Assembly: GCA_016191525.1 (NCBI GenBank)
Contig: JACPOK010000038.1
Span: 100,973 to 164,972, forward strand
DNA from: Burkholderiales bacterium
GTDB lineage: Bacteria; Pseudomonadota; Gammaproteobacteria; Burkholderiales; Burkholderiaceae_C
Length of the DNA: 64,000 bases
Reading direction: 5' to 3'
Below are positions 9,359 through 56,311 of the stretch, one piece after another. A model generated the notes under the pieces. That model was not told where the DNA came from and made no database searches. It worked only from the letters and a program-made list of their open reading frames with translations. The position numbers and the translations under genes are program-made. Position 1 is the first letter of the stretch, and every line of letters starts with the position of its first letter.

Positions 9359-10257
9359 ACCTCGCCTTGCTGGCAGCAGCCGCCACCGGAGTGCAGGTGG
9401 GCGCAGCCATCGTGGCGTCGCGGTTCGCCGTGGCGGAAGTGCCGCCGCTGACGCTGGCGATGCTGCGTTATGCCATCGGGTTTGCCTGCCTCCTGCCCTT
9501 CGTTTGGGAGGGAAAAAGGCCTGTAGGGCGCACCCAGCATGCGTGGGCGGCTACAAAATCGATAGCACCCGACCTTTTCGCCATGGCCGCGCTGGGCATC
9601 GGCCAGTTCGGCATCCTGATCGCGTTGCTCAATTTCGGGCTGCAGCGCGTGGGTTCCGCCCAGGCCGCGCTGATCTTCAGCCTCTTTCCCCTGCTCACGC
9701 TGATGCTGTCGGCCGCCCTCGGCCGCGAGCGGGTAACGGCGGCGCTGGTGTTTGGCGTGCTGCTTTCCGTGGCGGGCATCGCCGTGTCGCTGTCGGCGCG
9801 GCTGCAGGGCACGGGCGACTGGTGGGGCGAAGCGGCCGTCGCCGCTGCCGCCTGCACCGGCGCGGTTTGCAGCGTGCTGTACCGCCCCTACCTGCAGCGC
9901 TACCCCACCCTTGCGGTCTCGGCCTTCGCGATGCTGGCCTCGGTGCTGTTCCTGGCCGTGCTGGCGCTTGGGGAGGCCTGGCCCACGCGCGTCAGTTCTT
10001 TCAGCGCGCAGGCCTGGGCTGCGACAGGTTTCATCGGCGTGTCCAGCGGCATCGGCTACTACTGGTGGCTCTATGCGCTCAAGCACGAATCGCCGACGCG
10101 GGTCACGGTGTTCCTCTCGCTCAACCCCGTGACGGCGGCGCTGCTCGGCTGGGCCTTCCTGGGCGAAGCGCTGCGCCTGGAAGTGCTGGCCGCGCTGGTG
10201 CTGATTGCCGGGGGCTTGTGGTTAGCCACACGGCCCGCGCCACCCTCGCGCCGATAA
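9355..10257 (+). CDS. DMT/EamA family transporter
   Basis: Two EamA repeats with about 10 hydrophobic segments. There is no in-frame ATG near the start; a CTG at 9355 overlaps the upstream TGA. Confidence 0.82.
   Translation: MNLALLAAAATGVQVGAAIVASRFAVAEVPPLTLAMLRYAIGFACLLPFVWEGKRPVGRTQHAWAATKSIAPDLFAMAALGIGQFGILIALLNFGLQRVGSAQAALIFSLFPLLTLMLSAALGRERVTAALVFGVLLSVAGIAVSLSARLQGTGDWWGEAAVAAAACTGAVCSVLYRPYLQRYPTLAVSAFAMLASVLFLAVLALGEAWPTRVSSFSAQAWAATGFIGVSSGIGYYWWLYALKHESPTRVTVFLSLNPVTAALLGWAFLGEALRLEVLAALVLIAGGLWLATRPAPPSRR
9512..9567 (+). repeat. Dispersed ~56-bp repeat, copy A (in frame inside the DMT gene)
   Basis: GAAAAAGGCCTGTAGGGCGCACCCAGCATGCGTGGGCGGCTACAAAATCGATAGCA. Hand count 36/56 ungapped identity to copy E and 32/47 to the core of copy D. 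Confidence 0.8.
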
Positions 10258-10265
10258 TCGGGGGC

Positions 10266-10862
10266 ATGAGTCTCCCGCCTGCCGAAGCTCCCGGCGCCGC
10301 GCCCGGCCCGCGCCCCCAGCCCAACTCCCTCACGGACCTGTTTGTCTCCTTCACCCTGCTGGCCCTGCAGGGTTTCGGCGGCGTACTGGCCGTGGTCCAG
10401 CGCGAACTGGTGGAGAAAAAGGGCTGGATGACGCGCGAGGAATTCGTGGAGGAATGGGCGGTGGCGCAGATCATGCCGGGGCCCAACGTGGTGAACCTGG
10501 CGCTGATGATCGGCGGGCGCTACTTCGGGCTGCGCGGTGCGATGGTGGCGCTGGCGGGCATGCTGACGGCGCCTTTGCTGGTGGTGCTGGCGCTGGCACT
10601 GATCTATGCCCGGTTCGCCGAAAACGCGCAGGTGGCCGGTGCGCTGCGCGGCATGGGCGCCGTGGCCGCGGGCCTGATCACCGCGACGGGCCTCAAGCTG
10701 CTGCCCGCGCTGCGCAAGAGTCCGATGGGCCTGCCGGCCTGCATCGCCCTGTGCGTGCTGACCTTCGTGGCCGTCGCCCTGCTGCGGCTGCCGCTGGTGT
10801 ATGTGCTGCTGGGCCTCGGCGGCGTGGCCTGCGCCCTCACCTGGCGGAAGCTGCGCGCATGA
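10266..10862 (+). CDS. Short-chain chromate transporter (ChrA/SCHR), subunit 1
   Basis: LQGFGG, EEWAVAQIMPGPNVVN, GAMVALAG motifs. Confidence 0.88.
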   Translation: MSLPPAEAPGAAPGPRPQPNSLTDLFVSFTLLALQGFGGVLAVVQRELVEKKGWMTREEFVEEWAVAQIMPGPNVVNLALMIGGRYFGLRGAMVALAGMLTAPLLVVLALALIYARFAENAQVAGALRGMGAVAAGLITATGLKLLPALRKSPMGLPACIALCVLTFVAVALLRLPLVYVLLGLGGVACALTWRKLRA

Positions 10863-11437
10863 ACCCCGTGCTGCACCTGACGGCGGCCGACTGGCTCACG
10901 CTGTTCGGGCATTTCCTTTCGCTGTCGCTGCTCTCGGTGGGCGGCGCGATCACCACTGCGCCGGACATGCACCGCTTCCTGGTGGACCGGCAGCATTGGC
11001 TGAGCGACCCGCAATTCAGCGCTTCCATCGCCATCGCCCAAGCCGCGCCCGGACCCAATGTGCTGTTCGTGGCGTTGATGGGCTGGAACGTGGGGCTGAA
11101 CGCCGGTGGCCTCCCGCTGGCCCTGTTCGGCATCCTGGTCAGCATGGTGGGCATCCTGATCCCCAGCACCACGCTGACCTACCTGGCCGCCCGCTGGGGC
11201 CACGAGAACCGCGACCTGCGCGCCGTGCGTGCGTTCAAGCAGGGCATGGCGCCCATCGTTATCGCCCTGCTGATCGCCACCGGGTGGATCCTGTCCACAG
11301 GCAGCAGCTATGCCCTGCATGACTGGCCGCGCTGGGCCCTGACCGTCGCGGCGGCCCTGGTCGTCTGGCGAACGCGGTTACATCTTTTGTGGCTTCTGGG
11401 CGCCGGCGCAACGCTGGGCGCGCTGGGCTGGATCTAA
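10859..11437 (+). CDS. Short-chain chromate transporter (ChrA/SCHR), subunit 2
   Basis: LSVGGA, FSASIAIAQAAPGPN. ATGA overlap with subunit 1. Confidence 0.88.
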   Translation: MNPVLHLTAADWLTLFGHFLSLSLLSVGGAITTAPDMHRFLVDRQHWLSDPQFSASIAIAQAAPGPNVLFVALMGWNVGLNAGGLPLALFGILVSMVGILIPSTTLTYLAARWGHENRDLRAVRAFKQGMAPIVIALLIATGWILSTGSSYALHDWPRWALTVAAALVVWRTRLHLLWLLGAGATLGALGWI

Positions 11438-11452
11438 ATTGAAACAGCGCTG

Positions 11453-11478
11453 TCGCAGATAGCTACAGATTGATACAC
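11453..11478 (+). repeat. Partial (3' half) copy C of the ~56-bp repeat, intergenic
   Basis: GCAGATAGCTACAGATTGATACA shares AGCTACAGATT with copy D; the 5' half is not recognisable. Confidence 0.45.
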
Positions 11479-11506
11479 TTGACTCGACAGCACTGCCGGA
11501 GCACAC

Positions 11507-13651
11507 GTGAGCGAGCAAGAAGACCAGGGCCTGAAAGAGGCAGCCGTCCCCCTCTTTGACATCGTCGTCAGGATGCCGCCCGGCGCGCGGCTCGAAGACG
11601 TGGCGCGGCTCGCGCAGGCCGCGGGCGTGCCCGCCGAGCGGGTCGAGAAACTGGTCACGGTTCTGCGCAGCGTTCCGCAGGCCAAGATCGGCGCGAGCGT
11701 ACCGCGTGACCGCGCGGACCGCGCCAGGGAACAATTCGGCAAGGCCGGGCTGATCGTCGAAATCACCCCCGTCCTCACCGTCCAGCACATGGTGACGGGC
11801 GCCTTCGACGGCATGCACGAATGCCCCGGCTGCAAGACCCGCGTGGTGCTCCCCGAGAACAGGCAATGCCCGAACTGCGGCGTGTTTGTCGACAAGGTGA
11901 CCGACGACGTCCTGCTGCGCCGCAAGATCATGGAGCAGGAAAAAAGCCAGATGGACTTCCGGTCGGCGCGCGACGCCAAGGACACCGAGAAGCGCATCCG
12001 GGAAAGCCTGGAAGCGTCGATACGGGCCAAGGTCCGCGCCGAGCTCGAAGAAAAGTACGGCGGCAAGAAAGGCGGCTTCCTGGGCCGCTTTGCCGGCGCC
12101 GCGCGCATCGCCGGGGCCGGCTTGCTGGTGGCGGTGGCTTTTCTTGGGGGCAAGGGAACAACGGCCTCGGGCTTTTCATGGTCGGAGGCCACCAACTGGG
12201 GGCCCTTCAAATCAGCGAACGGTTCCAAGACCGCCGACACGGGCAAGATACTTGATGCCGCAGGTGCGGCCGGTGCCGCCGGCGCAGGTGCCAAGGGTGC
12301 CGCGGGCGGGGGGACGGCCACGGCCGAGGCAGGCAGCACGGGCGATGTGGATATCGACGATCCGCTGATCCAGGCCGCGGGCGGCAAGAGGATTGGCGCC
12401 AAGGGCCTGACCATCGAACAGGCCGTGGGCGCCGCGCAGGCGCTGGGCAAGGCGGTTGGCAACAACACGATCGACCGCGCCATGAACGGCGGCGGGCCTG
12501 CCGGTCCGGCGGGCGCTGGCGGGGCGGGCGCTGGCGGGGCGGGCGCGGGCGGGTCAGCGGGCGGGTCAGCGGGCGGTGGCGCCGTCGCGGGCGGGCCGGC
12601 CGACGGCACCGCCGGCGGGGCGGCGGGCGCGGAAGCACCGCCGCAGCTCAAGGCCCTGCTTTCACTCGAATTCGCCAAGCAACTGGCCGAAATGGGCCAG
12701 GTGCCGCGGGCCATGGAAATCATGCGCGCGCTGAAGGGCTCGCCCAAAGTCACGGGTGACGCGGCAGTGGCTTCGGCCGCGCGGATCGCTGACCTGGAGA
12801 TCAAGGCCTGGGCCACCCAGGCGCAGGGCGAGGCACGCGCCAAGCAGGTGGCCGAGGGCCTGATGGCCGAGGCCGGCGCCCTGAGCGACGCGGCGGAGCG
12901 CACCCAGGCGCTGGTACGCGTCGGCGTGATCCTCAGCCGCAGTGGCCGGCTGCCTTTCGAGACGGTGCGCTCGTTCTTCACGGCCGCCAGTGAATCGCTC
13001 AAGGCGGTGTCCGACCAGCGCGTTGCCGCCGCCACGCTCAGCGACTGGGCCGTCGGCCTGGGCGAGGCCCTGATGGCCGAGGCAACCAACCGCGCCCGCA
13101 CGGGCGCGTGGGCCAAGGCCCAGGCAGCGGGCGGGCAGGTCGAGGGCCTCGCCAAGCAGCTTTCGGACGCCTCCTCGCAGGCCCGGCTCGCGGCCATCGA
13201 TTACCAGGTCAAGCAGCAGCTGGGCCAGCAGGACAAGTCGACGCAAAGCATGGAGACGGCGCTCAAGCAGGTGGCCAAGGCCGGCGGCCTGGCCGAGCGC
13301 GCCGCCCTGTTGCGCGCCGTCGGCCAGCTCTCGGGGGGCGCCGCCACCGAGAAGATGCAGGCGGCAGCCACCGAGCTCGGAGCCCAGCTGGCCTCGAAAA
13401 CAGGCACCGAAAAAGCTCGCGGCCTGGCCCAGCTGTCGCTGCTGTATGCCGACGCGGGCCTGCGCGGCAAGTCCTCGGAGTTCAGCAAGATGGCCCAGTC
13501 GTCGTCGGGCCTGAGCCCGGCCGATTCGGCTTCCGTGAATGCGGACCTGATCGTGCGCAGCGACCTGGCTTCCGCCCGCAACCTGCAAAGCGTGGGCCTG
13601 TACGCCGAGTGCGAGGCGGTGCTGCAGCGGCTGGCGGGCTACCTGCTGTAG
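11507..13651 (+). CDS. Hypothetical membrane-anchored protein: double CxxC zinc ribbon, coiled coil, TM, Gly-rich linker, Ala-rich helical C-terminus
   Basis: GTG start with GGAG SD; CPGC...CPNCG; hydrophobic segment AGAGLLVAVAFLGG; codon usage consistent with coding. Confidence 0.8.
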   Translation: MSEQEDQGLKEAAVPLFDIVVRMPPGARLEDVARLAQAAGVPAERVEKLVTVLRSVPQAKIGASVPRDRADRAREQFGKAGLIVEITPVLTVQHMVTGAFDGMHECPGCKTRVVLPENRQCPNCGVFVDKVTDDVLLRRKIMEQEKSQMDFRSARDAKDTEKRIRESLEASIRAKVRAELEEKYGGKKGGFLGRFAGAARIAGAGLLVAVAFLGGKGTTASGFSWSEATNWGPFKSANGSKTADTGKILDAAGAAGAAGAGAKGAAGGGTATAEAGSTGDVDIDDPLIQAAGGKRIGAKGLTIEQAVGAAQALGKAVGNNTIDRAMNGGGPAGPAGAGGAGAGGAGAGGSAGGSAGGGAVAGGPADGTAGGAAGAEAPPQLKALLSLEFAKQLAEMGQVPRAMEIMRALKGSPKVTGDAAVASAARIADLEIKAWATQAQGEARAKQVAEGLMAEAGALSDAAERTQALVRVGVILSRSGRLPFETVRSFFTAASESLKAVSDQRVAAATLSDWAVGLGEALMAEATNRARTGAWAKAQAAGGQVEGLAKQLSDASSQARLAAIDYQVKQQLGQQDKSTQSMETALKQVAKAGGLAERAALLRAVGQLSGGAATEKMQAAATELGAQLASKTGTEKARGLAQLSLLYADAGLRGKSSEFSKMAQSSSGLSPADSASVNADLIVRSDLASARNLQSVGLYAECEAVLQRLAGYLL
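12509..12577 (+). repeat. In-frame tandem repeats (3 x 15 bp, 2 x 12 bp) encoding a GAGGA/GGSA linker
   Basis: GCGGGCGCTGGCGGG x2 plus a variant; TCAGCGGGCGG(G/T) x2. Confidence 0.75.
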
Positions 13652-13690
13652 CGCCTGCTCGGGACCACCGCTCGTGCCCATAATCGGCGC

Positions 13691-14158
13691 ATGAGCGATT
13701 TGCCCGTTCCCCAACTCAAATTCTTCGCCGACCTTTCGGTGCGGGTGGACAAGCCCCAGGAAGTGGGGCGTACCGCGCGCGGCCTGCGGCGGCTGATTCC
13801 CATCCTGGGCGGCGAGGCGCGCGGCGACGGCTGGACGGCCCGCGTGCTGCCCGGCGGCGCAGACTTCCAGCTGGTGGTGACCGACACGCTGGCCGAGCTG
13901 GATGCGCGCTACATGCTCGAAACCGACGGCGGCGACCGCATCTACGTCACCAACCGGGCAGTGCGTTCCGGGCCGCCCGAGCTCATGGCGAAACTGGTGC
14001 GCGGCGAGCCGGTCGATGCGTCGCAGATCTACTTCCGCTGCAGCCCCAGCTTCGAAACCGCCTCGGCTTCGCTGCAATGGATCACCGAGCGGATGTTCGT
14101 GGGCAGCGGCGCGCGCCACCCCGACAAGGTGGTGATGCGTTTCTGGGAACTGGCCTGA
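13691..14158 (+). CDS. DUF3237 (UPF0311)-like protein
   Basis: RRLIPILGG, VLPGGADFQ, LDARYMLETDGG, IYFRCSPSFET pattern. Confidence 0.78.
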   Translation: MSDLPVPQLKFFADLSVRVDKPQEVGRTARGLRRLIPILGGEARGDGWTARVLPGGADFQLVVTDTLAELDARYMLETDGGDRIYVTNRAVRSGPPELMAKLVRGEPVDASQIYFRCSPSFETASASLQWITERMFVGSGARHPDKVVMRFWELA

Positions 14159-14175
14159 GGCAGGGGGGACCAACG

Positions 14176-15129
14176 ATGCAATACCGCACCCTGGGCCGCT
14201 CGGCCCTGCAAGTTTCGCCGCTTTGCTTCGGCGGCAACGTGTTCGGCTGGACGGTGGACGAGCGCACCTCGTTCTCGCTGCTGGACGCCTGGCTGGACGC
14301 AGGCTTCAATTTCATCGACACGGCTGACGTCTATTCGCGCTGGGCGCCCGGCCATAGCGGCGGCGAATCGGAAACCATCATCGGCAAGTGGCTGGCGCAG
14401 GGTGGCCGGCGCGGCAAGGTGGTGCTGGCCACCAAGGTGGGCATGGACATGGGCGATGGCCGGGTGGGCCTGAAGCCGGCGCGCATCCGCGAAGCGGTGG
14501 AAGCGTCGCTGCGGCGGCTGCAAACCGATCACATCGACCTGTACCAGGCGCACAAGGACGATGCCGGCACGCCGCTGGCCGACACGCTGGAAGCTTTCGG
14601 GGCGCTCATCAAGGCGGGCAAGGTACGCGTGATCGGCGCCTCCAACTACAGCGCGCCGCGGCTGGCCGAGGCGCTGGAGACCAGCCGGCGGCTGGGCCTG
14701 CCGCGCTACGAAAGCCTGCAGCCGCTGTACAACCTGTCGGACCGCGCGGTGTTCGAAAACGAATTGCAGGCGCTGTGCATGAAGGAAGGGCTGGGCGTGA
14801 TCAGCTTTTATGCGCTGGCGGCGGGCTTCCTGACAGGCAAGTACCGCAAGGATTCCGACACGGCCACGAGCGCGCGCGCATCCACCATCGCGCGCTACCT
14901 CAACGGGCGCGGGCTGGCGATCCTGGCTGCGCTGGATGAGGTGGCTGGCGCCATCGGCAGCACTCCTGCCCGCGTGGCCATCGCATGGCTGGTCGCCCGC
15001 CCCGGCGTCACGGCGCCGATCGCCAGCGCCACTTCACTGGCGCAGCTGGCCGACCTGGTGGCAGCCAGCGAGCTGAAACTGGATGCGTCGGCCACGGCGG
15101 CGCTGGACACCGCCAGCACCGGCGGCTAG
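14176..15129 (+). CDS. Aldo/keto reductase
   Basis: IDTADVY, LATKVG, IDLYQAH, IGASNYS, QPLYNL. Start reassigned to 14176. Confidence 0.92.
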   Translation: MQYRTLGRSALQVSPLCFGGNVFGWTVDERTSFSLLDAWLDAGFNFIDTADVYSRWAPGHSGGESETIIGKWLAQGGRRGKVVLATKVGMDMGDGRVGLKPARIREAVEASLRRLQTDHIDLYQAHKDDAGTPLADTLEAFGALIKAGKVRVIGASNYSAPRLAEALETSRRLGLPRYESLQPLYNLSDRAVFENELQALCMKEGLGVISFYALAAGFLTGKYRKDSDTATSARASTIARYLNGRGLAILAALDEVAGAIGSTPARVAIAWLVARPGVTAPIASATSLAQLADLVAASELKLDASATAALDTASTGG

Positions 15130-15182
15130 CCAAGCAGTTCGGGAAGCCCAGCCCTTGACGTCCTCCGGCGGCGGGCCAATCT

Positions 15183-15923
15183 TCATGACCCTGTGCGCTG
15201 CCTCAATGCTTCGTACAGGCACACACCGCTGGCAACCGAGACGTTCAGGCTTTCCACCGCGCCGCGCATGGGGATGCCCACCAGCTCATCGCAGGTCTTG
15301 CGCGTGAGCTGGCGCATGCCCTCCCCTTCGGCGCCCAGCACCAGCGCAACCGGCACCTTCAGGTCCATCTGGTAGATCGTTTTGGGGGCGTCGTCGCTGG
15401 TGCCTATGCACCAGATGCTGCGCTCCTTGAGCTCGCCCAGCGTGCGCGCCAGGTTGGTGACCATGAAATAGGGCATGGTCTCGGACGCGCCGCTTGCCAC
15501 CTTGGCGACAGTGGCGTTGATGCCCACCGCGTGATCCTTGGGGGCGATCACCGCATGGGCGCCGGCCCCGTCCGCCACCCGCAGGCATGCACCGAGGTTG
15601 TGCGGGTCGGTCACGCCATCGAGCACCAGCAGCAGGGGCGGCTCCTTGATCGAATCCAGCAGGTCGTCCAGTGAATTCACCTGCGGCAGCGCCTCCACCC
15701 GGGCGGCTACTCCCTGGTGGCCGTGGCTGCCGGCCAGCTTGGCCAGCCGCATGCCGTCGGCGTCGATCAGACGGGCCCCGGCTTCCCGGGCGCGCTCGGT
15801 GAACTGGCGCATCCGTGCATCTTTTCGGGCAGGGTCGACGTATATCTCGATGATTGAGCGGGGCGCGGTTTTGAGGCGCACGCCCACGGCGTGAAATCCG
15901 AACAGTACTTTGGGGGCAGACAT
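15183..15923 (-). CDS. rlmB: 23S rRNA (guanosine-2251-2'-O)-methyltransferase
   Basis: GFHAV, HQGVAA, LDGVTDPHNLGACLR, GAEGEGM, ESLNVSVA (SPOUT family). Confidence 0.95.
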   Translation of the reverse strand: MSAPKVLFGFHAVGVRLKTAPRSIIEIYVDPARKDARMRQFTERAREAGARLIDADGMRLAKLAGSHGHQGVAARVEALPQVNSLDDLLDSIKEPPLLLVLDGVTDPHNLGACLRVADGAGAHAVIAPKDHAVGINATVAKVASGASETMPYFMVTNLARTLGELKERSIWCIGTSDDAPKTIYQMDLKVPVALVLGAEGEGMRQLTRKTCDELVGIPMRGAVESLNVSVASGVCLYEALRQRTGS

Positions 15924-15991
15924 CACAGGATTATCCCGTGGGCGGGCGCCTAGCCCCTGTATAAAATGAATCACAAAGAAGGAGAGCGAGC

Positions 15992-16864: not shown

Positions 16865-16889
16865 GGCACGGGCCGGGAGCGCACCACGG

Positions 16890-19220: not shown

Positions 19221-19228
19221 AGCCGCTT

Positions 19229-19898
<670 letters not shown>

Positions 19899-19900
<2 letters not shown>

Positions 19901-22704: not shown

Positions 22705-22721
22705 GCTTGCCGGCCTGCGGT

Positions 22722-24739: not shown

Positions 24740-24756
24740 GGGTGGGGCTCCGGTTT

Positions 24757-27274
<2,518 letters not shown>

Positions 27275-32828: not shown

Positions 32829-34004
32829 TTATTCAGGCACGAAGCCGTAGATGCCGCCGCCGTGCGTTACGACCACCAGGGTGTTGCCCGCCAGGACAGG
32901 GGCGGCGGCCACGGCCGTGCCGTCGGTCGTGAGGCGCGTGAGCGGCGTTCCATCGGTGCGGGACAGCAGGTGCACCAGGCCCGCGCTGTCACCCACCACC
33001 ACGGAGCGGCCCACCACCAGCGGGCCGGTCAGGCCGCGGTACAGCAGGCGGTCGCTGGTCCAGGCGCGCTCACCGGCGTCGCGCTTCCAGGCGACGACCT
33101 TGCCGTCGCTCTCGGTGCCGTAAACCATCTGCTCATCGCCATGCACGCCTTCGGCGCCATTGGCCGGCTTGGACCACAGCACGGTGCCGCGCGCCGCGTC
33201 CACACAGCCCACGCTGGCCTGGAAGGCGCGTGCGCAAACCGTATTGCCGACCCGGCTGGTGCGGCCCACCAGGTCCACCAGACGCTCGATATCGTTGGTG
33301 CCGCGGGGCGTTGCGATGGCAGCTTCCCAGCGGACGCTGCCATTGATCGGGTTCAGGCCCACCATGCGCCCACCCAGGCCGGTGACCAGGGTGTCGCCCA
33401 CCGCCAGCATCACGCCGGACTGGCGCAGCACCAGCGGCTCGCCGGGGCGCTGCTGGGTCCACAGCTTGCGGCCGCTCTGGCCGTCGAAAGCGCTGACCGA
33501 GCGGTCCGCCGCCAGCACAAAGACACGGCCTCCCGCCACGAAAGGCGCGGTGTAGCCCTGGGCCACCAGCTTCTGGCGCCAGGCCTGCTTGCCGCCGCTG
33601 AAGGCCACGACTTCGTTGCCGCGCGTGATGACCGCGGTGAGGTTGCCATCGCTGCCAACGCCGGCCGCGATCGGCCCGCCCGCACTGGCGCGCCACAACT
33701 CACGCCCGGTCGCGCCGTCGATCGCAACCACCGAGCCATCGCTGCTGGCCACGGCCACCGTGTTGCCACTGACGTTCACGGCCAGGGGAAAGCCGACTTC
33801 GCCGACGCGTGCCGTCCATGCCGGGCGCACGGCGATGAGGGCCGCGTTGGGTGCCAGTTCGGCCGGCTTGGGCTTTTCCACGGAACTGCTGCCGCCCAGC
33901 CAGGACGGCATCATGGAACAGCCGGAAATCGCGAGTGCTACAAAAACAGGAGCTGCGTAAGCAATACCGGTGCGGGTTGCAGCCGTTTTCTTCTCGTAAA
34001 TCAT
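32829..34004 (-). CDS. bamB: Outer membrane protein assembly lipoprotein BamB
   Basis: Lipobox LAISGC, PQQ-like propeller repeats, RGTNDIERLVD; yfgM-bamB-der synteny. Confidence 0.92.
   Translation of the reverse strand: MIYEKKTAATRTGIAYAAPVFVALAISGCSMMPSWLGGSSSVEKPKPAELAPNAALIAVRPAWTARVGEVGFPLAVNVSGNTVAVASSDGSVVAIDGATGRELWRASAGGPIAAGVGSDGNLTAVITRGNEVVAFSGGKQAWRQKLVAQGYTAPFVAGGRVFVLAADRSVSAFDGQSGRKLWTQQRPGEPLVLRQSGVMLAVGDTLVTGLGGRMVGLNPINGSVRWEAAIATPRGTNDIERLVDLVGRTSRVGNTVCARAFQASVGCVDAARGTVLWSKPANGAEGVHGDEQMVYGTESDGKVVAWKRDAGERAWTSDRLLYRGLTGPLVVGRSVVVGDSAGLVHLLSRTDGTPLTRLTTDGTAVAAAPVLAGNTLVVVTHGGGIYGFVPE
33936..33990 (-). repeat. ~56-bp repeat, copy B (encodes most of the BamB signal peptide)
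   Basis: Reverse complement GAAAACGGCTGCAACCCGCACCGGTATTGCTTACGCAGCTCCTGTTTTTGTAGCA; 40/55 ungapped identity to copy D. Confidence 0.8.
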
Positions 34005-40827: not shown

Positions 40828-42291
40828 TCAGCGGCCGCGGCCGCCGCGGCGCTGGCCGCCACCGCCACCACCACCACCCGTGCCGCCGCCCCCGCCGCCC
40901 CGGCGCTGCCCGCCCGGGCCGCCCTGGCGCTGGCGCGTGAAACTGTCGGCGCCGATATAGCCCAGCGAAGTCTTCATCGGGTCCGGCTGGGCGCTGCCGC
41001 CCTGGCGGTCACCGTCCTGCTGCCGGTCGCCGCCGCGGTTCTTGCGGCGTTGTCCCTGGCCTTGCCCCTGGCCCTGGCTCTGCCCGCCGCCGTTGCCCCG
41101 GCCCTGGCCGGGAGGGCCGCCGGGTCCCTGCGCGCGCTGGCCGTCGTTGTTGCCCCGCCCGCCACCGGCACCGCCGCTGCGCCCACCCCGGCGGCGGTTG
41201 CGGCCGCCCCGGCCACCACCCTCGCCTTCGGCATTGGCGCCTTCGCCGCGCGGCGGCCGCTCGCCCTGCTGGCTGCCGGCGGCGTTCATCAGCGCCCGGA
41301 TGTCGCGCTCGTCCAGTTCCATGAAGGCGCCGCGCTTGAGGCCGCGCGGCAGCACCATGGCGCCGTAGCGGATGCGGATCAGCCGGCTGACGGCATGGCC
41401 CACCGCCTCGAACATGCGGCGCACCTCGCGGTTGCGCCCTTCGGAAATCGTCACGCGGTACCAGGTGTTGGCACCCTCGCCGCCGCCGTCCTCGATGGCG
41501 CCGAACTGGGCCCGCCCATCGCCCAGTTCCACGCCTTCGGTCAGGCGCTGCTTTTCCTCGGTGCTGAGCGCGCCCAGCACCCGCACGGCGTATTCGCGCT
41601 CCAGGCCGAAGCGCGGATGCATGAGCCTGTTGGCCAGTTCGCCCGAGCTGGTGAACAGCAGCAGGCCTTCGGTGTTCAGGTCCAGCCGGCCGACCGACTG
41701 CCACTTGCCCTGGTACAGGCGCGGCAGCTTGCGGAACACGGTGGGCCGGTTTTGCGGGTCGTCGTTGGTCACCACCTCGCCCGCGGGCTTGTGATAGGCG
41801 ATCACCCGGGCCGGCGGCGGCGCGATCCGGAAGCGGATCGGCTTGCCGTTGAGCTTGACCTGGTCGCCGAACTGGATGCGTTGGCCGATATGGGCCGGCT
41901 CGTTGTTGACGGAAATGCGGCCTTCGGTGATGAGCTGCTCCATCTCCAGGCGCGACCCCAGCCCGGCCTGGGCCAGAACCTTGTGCAGCTTGGGGGTATC
42001 CGCCTGGGCCGACAGCACCCGCTTGGGCAGCACCACCTCGGGGCTTTGCTCGTCGGCGTCGAACTGCCCCGACACGACGTCGGCGAACAGGATGGGGGCC
42101 GGCGGCACGGCCGCCTCGGCCAGCGCCGCCGGCCGGTCTTGATCGTCGTCGTCGAGGTCCTCGTCGTCGTAATCGTCGTCCGACGCGAATTCGGCGGCAT
42201 CACGTTCCCGGTCGGCGCGCGCCGCAGCCTCTTTTTCTTCCATTTCCTCGAGGGTGGCGGTAGGGGCGGCGCGGGAATGCGGATCGGTCAT
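40828..42291 (-). CDS. rluB: 23S rRNA pseudouridine synthase B with acidic N-terminus and Gly/Arg-rich tail
   Basis: S4 domain [34 protein letters not shown]. Confidence 0.9.
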
Positions 42292-42293
42292 GT

Positions 42294-44058: not shown

Positions 44059-44072
44059 GAAAGTTGCCAGCG

Positions 44073-46881: not shown

Positions 46882-46888
46882 GAAAAGC

Positions 46889-47092
46889 TCATGCAGGTTC
46901 TTTGGGGTCCAGGGCCAGCTCCAGCCTGGAAATCTGGTCCCGCAGGCCCAGGCGGCGCTTCTTCAGCCGCCGCATCATCAGCTCGTCCAAGGGCGTTTCC
47001 TGGCCCAGCCGGTCGATCAGTGCGTCCAGGTCGGCGTGCTCCATCTTCAATTCGATCAGGTGGCGCTCGGGGGAGTGGAGATTGGAGTCCAA
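46889..47092 (-). CDS. DUF465 (YdcH-like) small coiled-coil protein
   Basis: TTG start; LKMEHADLDALID...RRLKKRRLGLRDQI. Confidence 0.8.
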   Translation of the reverse strand: MDSNLHSPERHLIELKMEHADLDALIDRLGQETPLDELMMRRLKKRRLGLRDQISRLELALDPKEPA

Positions 47093-47206
47093 GGGAATGG
47101 GGCTGGCGCAATGGCCGGGGCTCGGGTTCACCCGATAATACGTGCTTGGCGGCGTTTAATCGAGCGCCCCAGCCCATAATGGGCCGACGAAAGAACCCCC
47201 CTGAAC

Positions 47207-47968: not shown

Positions 47969-47974
47969 GCCGGC

Positions 47975-49701: not shown

Positions 49702-49702
49702 G

Positions 49703-51121
49703 CTAGAAATTCAGTGTGCGCTTGTCGACGGCCAGCGCCGCTTCCTTGGTGGCCTCGGACAGCGACGGGTGCGCATGGCAGATGCGGGCCAGGTCTTCCG
49801 AGGACGCGCGGAACGCCATCGCCACCACGCACTCGGCGATCAGTTCACTGGCCATGGGGCCCACGATGTGCACGCCCAGGATTTCGTCGGTGGCGGCATC
49901 GGCCAGCATCTTCACCATGCCGGTGGTGTCGCCCAGCGCCCGCGCACGGCCGTTGGCCATGAAAGGGAAGGTGCCGGCCTTGTACTTCACGCCCGCGGCC
50001 TTGAGCTGCTGCTCGGTCTGGCCGACCCAGGCGATTTCCGGGCTGGTGTAGATCACCCAGGGAATGGTGTTGAAGTTCACGTGGCCGTGCTGGCCGGCGA
50101 TGCGCTCGGCCACCGCGACGCCCTCCTCCTCGGCCTTGTGCGCGAGCATGGGGCCGCGCACCACGTCGCCGATGGCCCACACGCCCGGCAGGTTGGTCCG
50201 GCACTCCTCATCGACGACCACGGCGCCGCGCTCGTCCAGCTTCAGGCCAACGGCTTCGGGATTCAGGCCGATGGTATTGGGCACGCGGCCGATGGAGACG
50301 ATCAGCTTGTCAACATCCAGCGCCTGCGCCTCGCCCCTGGCATTCGTATAGGCGATCGACACGCCCTTCTTGCCCGTCTTGATTTCGCCCACCTTCACGC
50401 CCAGCTCGATCTTCAGGCCCTGCTTGTCGAAGGCCTTCTTCGCTTCCCTGGCGATCTGCTCGTCCACCGCGCCCAGGAAAGTGGGCAGGCCTTCGAGGAT
50501 GGTCACGTCCGAGCCGAGGCGCCGCCAGACGGAACCCATCTCCAGCCCGATGACGCCGGAGCCGATCAGGCCCAGCTTCTTCGGTACGCCCTGGATGCGC
50601 AGCGCGCCGTCGTTCGAAAGGATGTTCTCCTCGTCGAACGGCGTGCCGGGCAGCGCGCGGGCATTGGAGCCGGTGGCCACGATGATGTTCTTGCCCACCA
50701 GCGACTCTTCGCCAGCCTTGACTTCGTAGCCGCCGTCCGCGGCCTTCGCGAACGAGCCGCGGCCGTGGAAAAACGTCACCTTGTTCTTCTTGAACAGGAA
50801 CACGATGCCGTCGTTGTTCTGCTTCACGACCGTGTCCTTGCGGGCCAGCATCTTCGCGGCATCCAGCGCCAGGCCTTTCACTTCAATGCCGTGTTCGGCG
50901 AAGTGCTTGCCGGCGTGCTCGAAGTGTTCCGAGGACTGCAGCAGCGCCTTGGACGGGATGCAGCCTACGTTGGTGCAGGTGCCGCCCAGGGCCGGGCCGC
51001 CCTTGGCGTTCTTCCATTCGTCGATGCAGGCGGTGTTGAAGCCCAGCTGCGCCGCGCGGATGGCGGCGATGTAGCCGCCGGGACCGCCGCCGATGACGAT
51101 CACGTCAAAGTTCTTTGCCAT
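49703..51121 (-). CDS. lpdA: Dihydrolipoamide dehydrogenase (E3)
   Basis: [25 protein letters not shown]. Start reassigned to 51121. Confidence 0.96.
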
Positions 51122-51131
51122 CTTCGGTACC

Positions 51132-52388
51132 TCAGATGTCAAAGAGAAGGCGCGACGGATCTTCCAGCGCTTCCTTCATCGCCACCAGGCCCAGCACGGC
51201 TTCGCGGCCGTCGATGATGCGGTGGTCGTAGCTCATGGCCAGGTAGTTCATCGGCCGCACCACCACCTGCCCGTTCTCCACGACGGCGCGGTCCTTGGTG
51301 GCGTGCACGCCCAGGATGGCCGATTGCGGCGGATTGATGATGGGGGTGGACAGCATCGAGCCGAACACGCCGCCGTTGGAAATGGAAAAGGTGCCGCCGG
51401 TCATCTCTTCGATGCCCAGCTTTCCGTCGCGCGCCTTGGCGCCGTACTCGGCGATCTTCTTCTCGATGTCGGCGAAGCTCATCTGGTCGGCATTGCGCAG
51501 GATGGGCACCACCAGGCCGCGCGGGGAGCCCACGGCGATGCCGATGTCGAAGTAGCCGTGGTAGACGATGTCGTTGCCGTCGACCGATGCGTTGATCACC
51601 GGGTATTTCTTCAGCGCATGAACCGCCGCCTTCACGAAGAAGCTCATGAAGCCGATCTTCACGCCGTGCTCCTTCTCGAACTTCTCCTGGAAGCGCTTGC
51701 GCATTTCCATCACCGGAGCCATGTTCACTTCGTTGAACGTGGTGAGGATGGCGTTGCTCGACTGCGACTGCAGCAGGCGCTCGGCCACGCGGGCCCGCAG
51801 TCGGCTCATGGGCACGCGCTGTTCGGGCCGCTGCCCCAGGTCCGGCGCCGCCACGGACGCGTTCACCTGGGGGAGGAAAGCGGCTGCAGGGCGCGCCGGC
51901 TGTGCTTGGGCAGCTACAGATTTAGGAGCAGACGCAGCGCCGAGCACGTCCGCCTTGAGCACGCGGCCGTCCTTGCCGGTGCCCGGCACGGAGCCGGCGG
52001 CCAGGTTGTTGTCGGCCATCAGCTTGGCGGCTGCCGGCATCGCGATGCCGGCCTTGCTGCCCACCGAAGCGGCGGCTGCCGGCGCCGCCGCAGCGGCGGG
52101 CACGGCAGCTGCTGCGGCCGGGGCCGGGGCCACCGCCACGCTCTTGCCGTCGGTATCGATCTTCGCGATCAGCTGCTCGGCGGCCACCGTGCTGCCGTCG
52201 GCCTGCACGATTTCGGCCAACACGCCGGCTGCGGGCGCGGGCACTTCCAGCACCACCTTGTCGGTCTCGATCTCGATCAGGATCTCATCCATCGCCACGG
52301 CGTCGCCGGGCTTCTTTTTCCACTGCAGCAGGGTTGCCTCGGCAACCGATTCGGACAGCTGCGGGACTTTGACTTCTACGATAGCCAT
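51132..52388 (-). CDS. sucB: 2-oxoglutarate dehydrogenase E2 (dihydrolipoyl succinyltransferase)
   Basis: Lipoyl domain ETDKV, E3-binding domain [17 protein letters not shown]. Confidence 0.96.
51876..51930 (+). repeat. ~56-bp repeat, copy D (antisense, in frame in the SucB linker)
   Basis: GAAAGCGGCTGCAGGGCGCGCCGGCTGTGCTTGGGCAGCTACAGATTTAGGAGCA; read on the minus strand as [18 protein letters not shown]. Confidence 0.82.
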
Positions 52389-52405
52389 TTTTCTGTTCGT
52401 TTTCG

Positions 52406-55276
52406 TTATTTGGTTAAGACGAAGCCCTTGAGCTTGCCGAAGGCGCCGTCGACCAGGGCCTTCTGCTGCTCCTGGTGCAGGTGCGAGTAGCCCACCGCGG
52501 GCGAGGCGGAGGCGGCGCGGCCGGAGTAACCCAGCTTCTGGCCTTCCAGCATGTTCTCGTGGATGTAGTGCTGCACGAAGAACCAGGCGCCCTGGTTCTG
52601 CGGCTCGTCCTGCGTCCAGACGATGTCGGTGGCGTTCGGGTACTTCTTGAGCTCGGCCGCGAAGGCCTTGTGCGGGAACGGATAGAGCTGCTCCACGCGC
52701 AGGATGACCGTGTCGTCAGCGCCCTTTTCCTCGCGCTTCTTGGCCAGGTCGTAATACACCTTGCCCGAGCACAGCACGATGCGCTTGACCTTCTCGGCCT
52801 TCAGTTCCTTGTTCTCGGGAATGATGGTCTGGAAGCTGCCCTTGGTGAACTCCACCAGCGGCGAGGCGGCGTCCTTGTTCCGAAGCAGCGACTTGGGCGT
52901 CATGATGATCAGTGGCTTGCGCAGCGGGCGGATCATCTGGCGGCGCAGCACATGGAAGATCTGGCTGGCCGTGGTCGGCTGCACCACCTGGATGTTGGTG
53001 TCGGCCGACAGCTGCATGAAGCGCTCCAGCCGCGCCGAGCTGTGCTCCGGGCCCTGGCCTTCATAGCCGTGCGGCAGCATCAGCGTGATGCCGTTCACGC
53101 GGCCCCACTTCACTTCACCCGAGGCGATGAACTGGTCGATCACCACCTGTGCGCCGTTGGCGAAATCGCCGAACTGCGCTTCCCAGATCACCAGGGTATT
53201 GGGGTCGTTGGAGGCATAGCCGTACTCGAAACCCAGCACCGCCTCTTCGGACAGGATGGAGTCGATCACGACGTAGGGGGCCTGGTTGTCGGCCACGTTG
53301 CACAGCGGCGTGTAGGTGCCGATGTCCCACTTTTCGCGGTTCTGGTCGTGCAGCACAGAGTGCCGGTGGGTGAAGGTGCCCCGCCCGCAATCCTCGCCCG
53401 ACAGGCGCACCGGGTAGCCGCTGGCCACCAGCGATGCGAAGGCCATGTGCTCGCCCATGCCCCAGTCGACATTGGTCTCGCCGCGGCCCATGGCGGCGCG
53501 GTCGTCCAGCACTTTCTTGACCAGGGGATGCGCAGTGAAGTCGGCCGGCAAAGTGGTGATCTTCTCGGCCAGGCGCTTCCATTCCGCGGTGGGAATGGCC
53601 GTGTCGGCCGCGTCGGTCCACTTCTTGCCCAGGTAAGGGCTCCAGTCGACCGCGTACTTGCTCTTGAAGTTGGTCAGCACCGGGTCGAACGTGTTCTTGC
53701 CGGCGTCCAGCGCTGCGCGCAGCGCCTTGACCATGTCGTCGCCCAGCGTCTCGCCCATGCCCTGCGCCGTCAGCTTGTCGGCGTAGAGGCGCCTCGTGCC
53801 GGGGTGCTGGCCGATCTTCTTGTACATCAGCGGCTGGGTCAGGGAAGGCGTGTCCTGCTCGTTGTGGCCGAGCTTGCGGAAGCAGACGATGTCCACCACC
53901 ACGTCCTTGGCGAACTCCATGCGGTAGTCCAGCGCCAGGCGGGTGGCCAGCACCACGGCTTCGGGATCGTCGCCATTCACGTGCAGTACCGGCGCCTCGA
54001 TCATCTTGACGACGTCGGTGCAGTACAGCGTGGAGCGGCTGTCACGCGGGTCCGAGGTGGTGAAGCCGATCTGGTTGTTGATGACGATGTGCACCGTGCC
54101 GCCGGTGAAGTAGCCGCGGGTTTCGGCCAGCGCCAGCGTTTCCATCACCACGCCCTGCCCTGCGAAGGCGGCGTCGCCGTGCACCTGCACTGGCAGCACC
54201 TGCTTGCCCTGCGGGTCGGCGCGGCGGTCCATCCGGGCCCGAACGGACCCTTCGACCACAGGGTTGACGATTTCCAGGTGGGACGGGTTGAAGGCCAGCG
54301 TCAGGTGGACCGGGCCGCCGGAGGTGGTCACGTCCGAGCTGAAGCCCTGGTGGTACTTGACGTCACCGGAAGGCAGGTCTTCCTTGGCGGTGTGGTCGAA
54401 CTCGGCGAACAGGTCGGCCGGCACCTTGCCCAGCGAATTGACCAGCACATTCAGCCGGCCGCGATGCGCCATGCCGATCACGATTTCCTGCACGCCCTTG
54501 GCGCCGGCTTCCTGGATCAGCTCATCAAGGGAGGCGATGAAGCTCTCGCCGCCTTCCAGAGAAAAGCGCTTCTGGCCAACGTACTTGGTGTGCAGGAAGC
54601 GCTCCAGGCCTTCGGCAGCCGTCAGGCGGTCGAGGATGTGCCTTTTTTTCTCGGCCGAGAAGTTGGGCTTGCTGCGGATCGATTCGAGCTTTTGCTGCCA
54701 CCAGCGCTTCTTGCCCTGGTCGCTGATGTACATGTACTCGGCGCCGATGGTGCCGCAGTAGGTTTCGCGCAGCGCGTTGATCAGCTCGCGCAGCGACATC
54801 GACTCCTTGCCGAAGAAGGTGTTGCTGGTGTTGAACACGATTTCCTGGTCGGCATCCGAGAAGCCGTAGAAGGAAGCCTCGAGTTCGGGGATCTTTTCGC
54901 GCTCGGTGCGCTTCAGGGGGTCCAGGTCGGCCCAGCGGGCGCCGACGTTGCGGTAGGCGGCGATGAGCTGCTGCACGGCCGTGCGCTTGCGGCCCATTTC
55001 GGAGTCGGCGCCGGTGGCCTGCACCACGCGTGTGCCACCCTGCTTGGCGCGCTCGGCGAAGGCATTGACCACGGGCAGGTGCGGCACGTCCCTGGCATTG
55101 CTGCCGTCGACGGCGGGCACGTTCTGCAGGGCGTCGAAATAGTCGCGCCAGGTGTCGGGCACGCTGCCGGGGTTGGCGAGGTAGTTTTCGTACATCTCCT
55201 CGACATAGGGCGCGTTGCCGCCGAAGAGATAGGAATTGCCTTGATAGGCCGTGTAGACGGAGCTGGGCTCACTCAT
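52406..55276 (-). CDS. sucA: 2-oxoglutarate dehydrogenase E1
   Basis: [37 protein letters not shown]. Confidence 0.97.
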
Positions 55277-55311
55277 GCTGTTCGCTGACTTTCCGTCTCC
55301 CTGCAGGAGAC

Positions 55312-55378
55312 ATTGGCTGGTTCAAGAAACCTCCCGCGACACGGCTGGACCGGATGGCGGATGCGACTGTGGCTGGAA
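55312..55378 (-). ncRNA. Probable sucA RNA motif (cis-regulatory leader)
   Basis: Minus strand ...GTCGCATCCGCCATCCGGTCCAGCCGTGTCGCGGGAGGTTTCTTGAACCAGC lies just 5' of sucA. It matches my recollection of the Burkholderiales sucA motif core (CCG..CGGTCAAGCCGTGTCGCGGAAGGTT..AACC). Not checked with Infernal. Confidence 0.7.
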
Positions 55379-55424
55379 GGGCCTGGTGTTGCAGCCCTGA
55401 TTGTGCCACCAACGGCTGGCGCTG

Positions 55425-56270
55425 TCAGCGCGGGATGGCTGGCGCCTGGCGCGCACCGCTGTTGTATTCGCGGCTTTCCTCATTCGATTTGCGCTGCCAC
55501 GCTTCGCGCATCTTCGTCACGGCTTCACGATCGGACATGGTGCTGCCCGTGGGCGGCGCCACATCTGCCGGGGGAGTAAATTCGATGCCGAACTGCCGCT
55601 TCATCGAGAGGTTGCAGGCCAGGTGGTCGCCGGCGGACGGCTGCGACCGCTTGCGTATGCTTTCGTCGCGCAGGTAGCTCATCACCGAATCGGCCTGCTC
55701 ATGGGTGTGCGGCAGCCCCAACACGTGGCCCATCTCGTGCACCACCACCGAGGGCAGGTCGGTCATGCGCGGGTTCAGCTCGATGCCGGTTTGCAGGCTG
55801 CCGGTGCCTGCGATCCCGCCGCCGTTGGCGCTTGCCTTCAGGTAATCCAGCCGCCAGCGGATGCTGACGCGCTCGGGCCTGCCGTCGGCCTGATACGGCG
55901 CCCGCCCGCCATAGCTCAGGTCCACCTTGCAGCCGTCCATCCAGGCTTGCATGGCCCGGCGGATCGCCGCCTCGACGGTGGCGGCAGGATGCTCGGCCGG
56001 CTCGTTGCCGGGGTCGTAATACAGCGTGAAGGCCGCGCGCACTTCCGGCTTGTACAGGCTGGCGGGCCGGGACGCCGCAGCCGCCGGTGCTGCCAGCCTG
56101 GGCAATTTGACCAGCGCTTCCCGGTCGTTGCCGCCCGATTCATTGCAAGGCGCATCCTTGTACGCCGTGCGCCCACCAGCGCCGGTGCAGCGGTAGACGG
56201 TGGGTTGCGCCTGGGCGGCCGCAGCACAGGCCAGCAAGCCCGCCAGTGCGCAGGCCGCTCTCATTTTCAT
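55425..56270 (-). CDS. Secreted DUF4124-like + matrixin/metzincin zinc metalloprotease
   Basis: Signal peptide, YRCTGAGGRTAYKDAPC, HEMGHVLGLPH plus Met-turn SVMSY. Start 56270 or 56291. Confidence 0.78.
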   Translation of the reverse strand: MKMRAACALAGLLACAAAAQAQPTVYRCTGAGGRTAYKDAPCNESGGNDREALVKLPRLAAPAAAASRPASLYKPEVRAAFTLYYDPGNEPAEHPAATVEAAIRRAMQAWMDGCKVDLSYGGRAPYQADGRPERVSIRWRLDYLKASANGGGIAGTGSLQTGIELNPRMTDLPSVVVHEMGHVLGLPHTHEQADSVMSYLRDESIRKRSQPSAGDHLACNLSMKRQFGIEFTPPADVAPPTGSTMSDREAVTKMREAWQRKSNEESREYNSGARQAPAIPR

Positions 56271-56311
56271 AGCCGCATAAGCATGTCCCATGCGGTCTGC
56301 AGCCTACTTTC
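56256..56311 (-). repeat. ~56-bp repeat, copy F (spans the prpE stop and the protease start)
   Basis: Reverse complement GAAAGTAGGCTGCAGACCGCATGGGACATGCTTATGCGGCTATGAAAATGAGAGCG; 26/35 identity to copy B over the core. Confidence 0.72.

Follow-up and report, generated by a model that had tools for sequence, protein, structure and literature searches.

The window, that is, the whole stretch of 64,000 nt of DNA that was analysed, carries five copies of a motif that are true members of a dispersed family of about 320 copies in a Ramlibacter-like genome of 5.0 Mb (G000). Judging from the sequence of this and other genomes, the family is probably a long recognition motif, which would have been made and then maintained through base substitutions driven by a force acting at the DNA level: Its copies overlay codons without insertion and keep their spelling across genera, which gives it the look of a long DNA recognition signal and not of a jumping repeat. 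The copies in the window are listed below, with the E values given by an nhmmer model trained solely on copies outside the window.

Copy 1, positions 9501-9569, plus strand (E 8.1e-14): in frame and sense in an EamA/DMT transporter gene (9391-10257), residues ~37-60, in the loop that follows membrane helix 1.
Copy 2, positions 26543-26605, minus strand (E 9.4e-12): residues ~223-244 of HisZ (gene hisZ, 26117-27274), within the tRNA-synt_His domain; in frame, in a second sense frame.
Copy 3, positions 33934-34001, minus strand (E 2.2e-10): residues 2-24 of the signal peptide of the BamB lipoprotein (gene 32829-34004), followed by the lipobox AISGCS.
Copy 4, positions 51865-51932, plus strand (E 6.5e-12): antisense to sucB (51132-52388, minus strand), over the Ala/Pro linker (residues ~152-175) that joins the E3-binding domain of SucB to the catalytic one.
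Copy 5, positions 56254-56320, minus strand (E 4e-8): over the stop codon TAG (56306-56304) of the acetyl-CoA synthetase gene (acs), a short spacer and the region where the gene for an M10/DUF4124 lipoprotein (protease) starts, with its ATG at 56291 or 56270.

Across the whole 5.0-Mb genome the model finds 319 copies at E<=1e-3 and, in the reversed genome taken as null, no match at E<=0.1. The initial annotation was thus right in proposing a dispersed repeat family with five mutually alignable copies in the window, each of which the leave-out model recovers in its place at whole-genome E values of 4e-8 to 8e-14; its hand count of 64-73% pairwise identity also fits the mean column identity of 67% among the five. 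The length of ~56 bp that it gave has to be corrected to ~65-74 nt, and the half copy that it placed near 11453 yields no match even at E<=1000 with a target of 151 nt. The motif has a fixed register, corresponding to model columns 5-71, and the consensus TTTTCAGAGGGAAAAAGGCCTGCAGAGCGCRCCAGCTGTGCGTGGGCAGCTATCAAATTTATAGCA, in which 12 columns, spread across 48 nt, are invariant in an alignment of 80 copies. It is AT-rich in a GC-rich host genome, carries ~56 bits of information over 74 nt and occurs at a density of ~64 copies per Mb. Pairwise identity across the family averages 62%, with a maximum of 92.5%, while the nearest-neighbour identity of copies is 0.778 versus 0.743 under a column-shuffle null; mutual information is confined to adjacent columns, with no long-range haplotypes. 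A weak palindromic echo of the motif lies at 56244-56273 on the plus strand (E 0.008).

About a third of the family lies inside genes, 104 of the 319 copies being crossed by an open frame that agrees with the coding frame of the 150 nt on either side, as against 32 with co-directional flanks in different frames. The motif is read in four frames and orientations, 52 copies being sense and 52 antisense, and it is held at synonymous positions, which bears out the earlier view that its conservation resides in the DNA and not in the protein. The frames reported for the window were also correct: The EamA/DMT transporter, BamB and the start of the protease use one sense frame, HisZ uses a second one, and SucB has its copy in antisense. 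The statement that five of six copies lie in coding sequence needs to be qualified, since four of the five are truly intragenic and the fifth covers the acs stop and the spacer and takes in no more than the opening codons of the protease gene. Pfam matches confirm that the hosts are real genes, and a domain match runs across the copy in four of eight sampled proteins, the others having it in linkers or overlapping a domain edge; in the window, the matches of EamA (4-133) and of tRNA-synt_His (9-313) extend across copies 1 and 2, those of SucB flank copy 4, and both genes beside copy 5 have Pfam matches. Outside genes, copies avoid divergent promoter regions and are enriched at the 3' ends of genes: The 626 divergent gaps hold seven copies versus 42 in the 211 convergent ones, and between tandem genes the orientations split 56:63. 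Spacing is more even than chance, with 12 gaps of <2 kb between copies versus 40 expected. C27 and C5, two contigs of likely foreign origin, are devoid of copies, of which 17.8 would be expected in the 278 kb of C27.

How did so long a motif come to lie in functional genes? A mobile or once-mobile element, akin to the palindromic elements of Rickettsia (RPE) or to REPs, as in the initial annotation, or else to MITEs, would have been inserted in frame and would now supply peptide segments. The family is indeed dispersed, AT-rich in a GC-rich host, capable of forming hairpins, in frame for a third of its copies and patchy in its distribution, as invading elements are. The lengths of the host proteins tell otherwise. 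Relative to the motif-free relative G008, 14 of 32 in-frame copies show a length change of 0 or -2, five of +3 to +7 and ten of +15 to +54 nt, whereas the full gain of +66 to +72 nt is found in none of the 32; for copies that are not intragenic, the median difference is +5. These comparisons were made with gene calls from a crude custom finder and cover 1.6 Mb of G008 and, for the motif-bearing genome G066, 0.64 Mb. HisZ has no gap at the motif against 28 orthologues, including those from other families of the same order, in which the segment is present at equal length, and none of HisZ, BamB, SucB and EamA is longer than motif-free relatives or outside their range of length. The signal peptide of BamB, whose single in-frame start is the ATG at 34004, overlapping the upstream stop codon, measures 29 residues up to the Cys versus 20-28 in the longest relatives, and thus contains no insertion of 22 residues; the SucB linker is 3-4 residues shorter than that of relatives, not longer. 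The EamA loop, which is variable within the genus, has the same length in the genomes G005 and G061, and the corresponding site of G066 lacks the motif. Hence the proposal that the element adds peptide segments does not hold, since these four proteins are no longer than their motif-free orthologues and a gain of full element length is never seen.

At the sites compared, the sequence changes in place. Where high-information columns differ between G000 and G008, the consensus base is in G000 115 times and in G008 once. Low-information columns have 49% identity with the G008 orthologue versus 77% in the flanks, so that the change is not limited to critical bases. The copy at C21:146094-146159 aligns base for base with its G066 orthologue, at 57% identity in the patch. 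Three copies specific to G066 sit, however, in DNA that is 55-104 nt longer than that of G000 and, together with the ten in-frame copies with +15 to +54 nt, may reflect some insertion-like events.

The family also lacks the hallmarks of mobile elements. Terminal inverted repeats are absent, the ends matching in 7 of 20 positions, as are target-site duplications, the longest k-mer shared by the flanks averaging 3.89 versus 3.81 +/- 0.07 in the null; nor are there subfamilies or near-identical recent copies, given the mean identity of 62% and a nearest neighbour at 78% versus 74% for the null, and on these grounds a MITE was rejected. As the initial annotation noted, no cognate transposase lies in the window; the RAYT or HUH nuclease flanked by copies for which it suggested a search is not to be found either, because the single PF01797 (Y1/RAYT-like) gene of the genome is unflanked, its closest copy being ~6 kb off, and such a gene occurs in 272 of 301 genomes of the bacterial family, with or without the motif, which is present in 71. 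The hairpins that had been described do exist in the consensus, which can form three of them and has 82% of cells paired, but they show no covariation beyond column shuffles (score 0.102 vs 0.103; pairing 82% vs 81.9%), and a REP/REPIN-RAYT system was discarded on these two counts. An RPE-type repeat was set aside too, for the motif is translated in frame without extra residues with respect to orthologues. Considering also that different genera have copies at identical sites, under synonymous constraint, and that the likely foreign contigs have none, a mobile element appears quite unlikely as the source of the family.

The recognition motif is also supported by other genera. Across the bacterial family the motif is widespread but patchy, and it occurs in only two of 61 genomes of the genus of G000. 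At the hisZ site, the motif is present in 12 other genera, while in the bacterial genus to which G000 belongs only the hisZ DNA of G000 itself matches the motif model. Codons 240-243 read CTA/TCA/AAT/TTG in 13, 13, 12 and 13 of the 13 motif-bearing genomes, respectively, and the GC-rich CTG/GCC.../AAC/CTG in 23 non-bearing genomes. Synonymous identity among bearing genomes is 69.7% inside the motif versus 52.7% outside, as compared with 53.6% inside and 57.4% outside the motif region among non-bearing genomes. The sucB linker site is common to six or seven foreign genera, always antisense, and 11 genera share a site immediately downstream of the purA stop. Between G000 and G066, orthologous copies are 92% identical in high-information columns, 70% in middle ones and 48% in low-information ones, against a reference of 65% at 4-fold sites (332 genes). 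Lineages have their own dialects: At column 46, 13 of 13 copies of G066 have T, whereas the G000 orthologues have G in nine cases, A in three and T in one. On these alignments, the spelling of the motif is held at orthologous sites across genera, including synonymous positions, against the GC bias of the genomes.

Such dialects might also be expected if old, functionless repeats were homogenised within each genome by gene conversion, a form of concerted evolution with which the difference at column 46 and the slight excess of nearest-neighbour identity over the column-shuffle null would agree. Yet a mean likeness of ~62% over 70 nt offers too little homology for the process, and long-range haplotypes are missing. 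Low-information columns, at 48% identity between orthologues, are not homogenised and high-information ones, at 92%, are, a position-specific pattern that fits recognition and not copying, and conversion cannot account for one hisZ spelling in 13 genera. We consider it quite improbable.

A further alternative is that G000 acquired its copies piecemeal, by transformation and homologous replacement of short tracts from motif-bearing genera, leaving length unchanged. In the hisZ tree, G000 nests among motif-free species. Its hisZ is closer to that of its own genus everywhere but in codons ~221-250, which are closer to foreign bearing genera (0.70-0.76 vs 0.56-0.68 identity). This foreign-like tract coincides, however, with the limits of the motif, which is unexpected for random end points of recombination, and the adjoining windows of five codons are like those of the genus (0.93 vs 0.73; 0.87 vs 0.67). 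Moreover, 15 of 18 G066 copies are common to orthologous sites of G000, and most copies are therefore inherited. Piecemeal replacement thus seems very unlikely, and the position of G000 among motif-free species would imply either many independent losses or a motif family that has been rebuilt. Finally, a structured RNA, cis-regulatory element or small RNA is highly improbable, even if the consensus has three possible hairpins, with G-T pairs in the middle arm that fit one strand only, and copies are enriched at the 3' ends of genes, for the stems do not covary, RNAalifold gives a consensus energy of -1.7 kcal/mol, no copy matches any Rfam covariance model (the single match in the window being the sucA motif at 55283-55366) and orientation to transcription is random both in genes and between tandem genes.

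With respect to known systems, the motif behaves most like DNA uptake sequences. Those of Pasteurellaceae (USS) reportedly lie at regular distances and are retained at orthologous sites. Similarly to the present motif, USS and the DUS of Neisseriaceae have hundreds of copies on both strands, many of which are intragenic without change in length, lying in tolerant segments and in a few preferred reading frames (for USS inside genes, see PMC2817400). They arise and persist by substitution, keep their sites between related taxa, with dialects of the lineage, are more regularly spaced than expected by chance, seldom occur in foreign DNA and are enriched at the 3' ends of genes. The motif differs from them in its 65-74 nt with three palindromic sub-sites, compared with a core of 9-12 nt (~30 nt at most), in its ~64 copies per Mb versus roughly 800, and in being known here from genome sequence alone. 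It also differs in its relation to a receptor, for which ComP is the counterpart in DUS (PMC3868556). The ComP_DUS-type pilin domain (PF16732) is present in G000, in 278 of 301 genomes of the bacterial family and in none of 14 control genomes; since motif-free genomes have it too, it does not discriminate the bearers of the motif.

Other systems share part of these features. RPEs are likewise dispersed repeats translated in several frames within many unrelated functional genes, but they are said to be insertions adding 30-50 residues, whereas our motif adds none and has sites that are orthologous across genera with constrained synonymous positions. REPs and REPINs are also short, abundant, hairpin-capable and found preferentially downstream of genes and in convergent gaps, and intragenic REPs with GTAG/CGTC tags have reportedly been described; the present motif departs from them in its stems without covariation, in having no flanked RAYT, in being intragenic for a third of its copies and in forming no clusters, close neighbours being in deficit. 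The octanucleotide HIP1 of cyanobacteria, which is said to propagate by substitution, has thousands of copies and not hundreds, and 8 nt and not ~70. Like our motif, HIP1 (GCGATCGC) is hyper-abundant, found inside genes and maintained by selection (PMC5861425). A spaced motif of Polaromonas naphthalenivorans CJ2, ATAGCT(N)22CAAAAG, was listed as an unexplained novel motif on the basis of counts alone, without comparison of orthologues: 125 copies, mostly near gene ends, many between convergent genes and some intragenic (PMC5217627). It belongs to the same bacterial family and has in common with our motif an A-run and the core AGCTAT/ATAGC. Since the two differ in spacing and flanks, it is probably another dialect or a related family.

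From these features we infer a sequence-specific DNA reader and the kind of force that it would exert. Under the recognition reading, the copies would be fixed orthologous chromosomal sites, altered by base substitution alone and not spread by insertion, on every one of which the putative reader would act. The force could be biased transmission, for example if DNA with the motif is taken up and recombined in preference to other DNA, as with USS and DUS, or it could be selection for binding; either would push tolerant sites towards the motif and then keep them there, and lineages that lose the reader would let their copies erode. An uptake-type drive is slightly more likely than a cellular DNA-binding function, neither being probable by itself, and some other process acting in place is unlikely. 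Several points speak against the recognition reading. Besides the divergence of low-information columns, the insertion-like cases, the position of G000 among motif-free species and a ComP_DUS domain that does not discriminate, they include the length of the motif, which with ~56 bits over 74 nt greatly exceeds that of known signals for uptake or binding, and the strong and lasting force that some 300 such sites made by point substitution require.

A bolder proposal, which we advance as a possibility only, is that many Comamonadaceae have an undescribed class of long (65-74 nt) composite recognition signal with a co-evolving putative reader, perhaps in the uptake machinery around ComP-like pilins, by which essential genes are rewritten. 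Such a drive would change synonymous and even non-synonymous positions of hisZ, sucB, bamB, miaA and other essential genes and would hold them over the time of genus divergence; the patchiness of the motif would be accounted for by loss of the reader.

In practical terms, copies of the motif mislead repeat annotation and analyses of codon usage and dN/dS; they also mark native versus foreign DNA, as contig C27 illustrates, and their patchy occurrence, in 71 of 301 genomes, lends itself to phylogenetic profiling as a way to the putative reader. If the recognition reading is true, an undiscovered sequence-specific DNA reader is predicted, and the concept of recognition and uptake sequences would extend from motifs of ~10 nt to composite signals of ~70 nt. 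A force at the DNA level, unrelated to protein function, would then shape the coding of ~100 genes per genome in a large and environmentally important bacterial family, reaching signal peptides, linkers and even segments within domains, and these genes would constitute natural overlapping codes for a protein and a DNA signal.

The five copies reported in the initial annotation proved to be genuine: Read directly, they align readily with a mean column identity of 67%, and a model built from copies outside the window alone matches all of them with whole-genome E values from 8e-14 to 4e-8 in iterated nhmmer searches of the genome G000 (5.0 Mb in 40 contigs, 66.4% GC). The window corresponds to C36:100973-164972 of this genome. 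The same model finds 319 copies at E ≤ 1e-3 across the whole genome and none at E ≤ 0.1 in its reversed sequence. Their conserved register spans approximately 65-74 nt: TTTTCAGAGGGAAAAAGGCCTGCAGAGCGCRCCAGCTGTGCGTGGGCAGCTATCAAATTTATAGCA. A half copy that had been placed near position 11453 gave no match even at E ≤ 1000 within a 151-nt target. The window contains two weak partial matches to the model, one at 56244-56273 (+; E 0.008) corresponding to the opposite strand of copy 5 at its palindromic arm GCTAT...ATAGC, and the other at 42210-42240 (-; E 0.46), which is not significant. By Pfam searches and direct reading, the copies in the window are located as follows.

9501-9569 (+), copy 1: EamA transporter gene (9391-10257), within the loop that follows the first helix
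26543-26605 (-), copy 2: within the tRNA-synt_His domain of HisZ
33934-34001 (-), copy 3: encodes residues 2-24 of BamB, in the signal peptide of this lipoprotein, immediately before the lipobox
51865-51932 (+), copy 4: SucB linker, antisense
56254-56320 (-), copy 5: stop codon of acs, spacer and beginning of the gene for an M10/DUF4124 lipoprotein

The reading frames originally assigned to these copies are correct. Their assignment to coding sequence holds for the four copies that are truly intragenic and fails for copy 5, which covers the acs stop, the spacer behind it and the beginning of the next gene. The start codon of bamB overlaps the stop of an upstream 231-aa gene (ATGA, 34001-34004), so that there is no intergenic DNA at this place and the motif begins at codon 2. 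Around copy 1, a long ORF of 452 aa (9504-10862) has no corresponding gene, and the stretch 9391-10862 is occupied by the EamA gene and a chromate transporter gene (10218-10862) lying in different frames with an overlap of 40 nt. Upstream of the gene for the E1 subunit of 2-oxoglutarate dehydrogenase (52406-55276) lies the Rfam sucA RNA motif RF01070 (55283-55366, -; 71.5 bits), an ordinary, known cis-regulatory element.

Genome-wide, genes were called with a crude, home-made finder based on codon usage, and copies were considered in frame when both 150-nt flanks shared the same best coding frame and the frame remained open through the copy. By this flank-frame test 104 of the 319 copies are in frame within genes, while 32 lie between co-directional flanks in differing frames. 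The in-frame copies, which score lower than the others (42 vs. 51 bits), use four frames (sense-1 in 39 cases, antisense-2 in 34, antisense-1 in 14 and sense-2 in 10), and the Ala-rich peptides that result are recurrent; a stop-free frame whose product would be a peptide rich in Cys and aromatic residues is hardly used. Pfam analysis of the eight top in-frame cases indicates genuine genes (ThiL, MiaA, RlmD, P450, FemAB-like and others); in four of these proteins the domain match extends across the copy, and in the remaining four the copy lies in a linker or overlaps the edge of a domain. Orientation with respect to transcription is random both in genes (52:52) and between tandem genes (56:63), and a strand bias following GC skew was discarded as weak (175 vs. 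144), the skew of the genome being itself weak. The 626 divergent gaps are avoided, with 7 copies in total, and the 211 convergent gaps are favoured, with 42. Copies are also seldom close to each other, since only 12 spacings fall below 2 kb vs. 40 expected (the lowest of 500 permutations had 25), and the CV of spacing is 0.86 vs. 0.97. Copies are lacking from contig C27 (278,571 nt; 63.1% GC), where 17.8 would be expected (P 2e-8) and codon usage is atypical, and from C5 (47,929 nt; 3.1 expected). Both have about 63% GC, vs. 66-67% elsewhere, and a low coding score (0.74) under the codon model of the chromosome; they are probably plasmid or recently acquired DNA.

How did so many copies come to lie within genes? 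A structured RNA was rejected, since the hairpins described initially are present in the consensus but show no covariation, whether with RNAalifold or with a hand-drawn three-hairpin structure, and an Rfam search gave no match at motif copies. The proposal of a mobile or once-mobile element deserves more consideration. The ends of the consensus are not inverted repeats, no target-site duplication is common to the flanks of the copies, and no subfamilies or recent bursts were found; copies average 62% identity with none near-identical, and the confinement of mutual information to adjacent columns also argues against subfamilies. A RAYT/IS200-type gene flanked by copies, which the initial annotation suggested looking for, did not emerge: The sole Y1/RAYT-like gene (L001, 231 aa, contig C8:211298-211993, +), just upstream of a gene of about 1570 aa resembling glutamate synthase, has no copy within approximately 6 kb. 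Given its conservation as a single-copy gene in 272 of the 301 sampled genomes of the bacterial family, this gene looks like a domesticated housekeeping function rather than an active transposase.

The suggestion that the element supplies proteins with additional peptide segments is contradicted by HisZ, which aligns without gaps with 17 orthologues of the same genus and 11 belonging to different families of the order; BamB, SucB and EamA are likewise not longer than in 12-20 relatives. In this comparison, only the hisZ of G000 matches the motif at the DNA level (46 bits, others below 6 bits), and its differences from the relatives are clustered; they include synonymous substitutions that create rare codons ending in A or T, in every case in the direction of the consensus. 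The same pattern emerges from 1.6 Mb compared with G008, a complete genome of the same genus without copies. Among 32 in-frame copies with both flanks anchored, 14 show a length difference of 0 or -2, 5 of +3 to +7, 10 of +15 to +54 and 3 of -12 to -48, and none has the gain of a full element (+66 to +72 nt); copies outside genes have a median difference of +5. At sites of the same length, identity to G008 falls to 46-51% in the patch vs. 77% in the flanks, AT content is 43% in G000 vs. 25% in G008, and differing high-information columns carry the consensus base 115 times in G000 and once in G008. Prior similarity of the target does not fully explain these patches, for the orthologous segments of G008 match the consensus at 28-38% vs. 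about 26% expected, a small excess. The other motif-bearing genome of the genus, G066, was compared over 0.64 Mb, and its orthologue of C21:146094-146159 is plainly homologous base by base.

The distribution of the motif was followed with a covariance model. Sixty further species of the genus were searched besides G000, the nearest named relatives of which are Ramlibacter, and among these 61 genomes the family is present only in G000 and G066, with one match in a further member, G061. Across Comamonadaceae in the broad sense, matches occur in at least 71 of 301 genomes and at least 56 of 201 genera, numbers that are lower bounds because 16 candidates were scored per genome. Of the 18 mappable copies of G066, 15 lie at sites also bearing a copy in G000. 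Orthologous copies are 71% identical vs. 59% for non-orthologous pairs, with 92% identity in high-information columns, 70% in middle and 48% in low ones; between the two genomes, identity at the 4-fold sites of 332 genes is 65%. Column 46 is T in all 13 orthologous copies of G066, while the partners in G000 have G in 9, A in 3 and T in 1, which constitutes a genome-specific dialect. G000 and G066 are not clearly sister species, as their relationship is not resolved by a three-gene tree.

Conservation extends to other genera. Twelve motif-bearing genomes from other genera have the hisZ motif at precisely the site it occupies in G000, and codons 240-243 read CTA TCA AAT TTG in 13, 13, 12 and 13 of the 13 bearing genomes, vs. 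CTG, GCC and others, AAC, and CTG in 23 non-bearing ones. Bearing genomes have a synonymous identity of 69.7% within the motif vs. 52.7% beyond it; the corresponding values for non-bearing genomes are 53.6% and 57.4%. The copy in the sucB linker recurs in 6-7 foreign genera, antisense every time, and a copy directly after the stop of purA, in the same orientation (loci L307-L321), is common to 11 foreign genera. G000 lacks this copy, and its purA is separated from the following gene by just 17 nt (window 24740-24756). The sharing of the hisZ, sucB and purA copies across genera indicates that they are ancient, tied to particular sites and maintained at the level of DNA. In a hisZ tree without the motif region, G000 nests within its own motif-free genus, and its gene is foreign-like across the motif alone; a wide recombination tract is thus rejected, the foreign-like tract coinciding with the limits of the motif. 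The copies of G000 may have been retained, rebuilt or imported.

A candidate for the putative DNA-binding reader of the motif was sought in the pilins matching ComP_DUS (PF16732), the family of the Neisseria DUS receptor. Such matches occur in 278 of the 301 genomes (277 above the curated cut-off), including one in G000 (E 5.6e-17); the 14 control genomes have none. Being present almost throughout the bacterial family, ComP_DUS does not track the motif and was rejected as a discriminating reader. The only prior literature found comprises a related spaced motif of Polaromonas naphthalenivorans, present just in a statistical listing (PMC5217627), and an analysis of USS inside genes (PMC2817400).

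Every test that separates the two favours a recognition motif maintained in place over an inserted mobile repeat. To our knowledge, the only systems that behave so are DNA uptake sequences and HIP1, a much shorter motif; the behaviour is alike, but the length and composite build of the present motif fit neither. An uptake-type drive would be the foremost sub-mechanism, even if a tentative one, and we consider it fairly probable that the motif itself constitutes a long DNA recognition signal with a putative reader.
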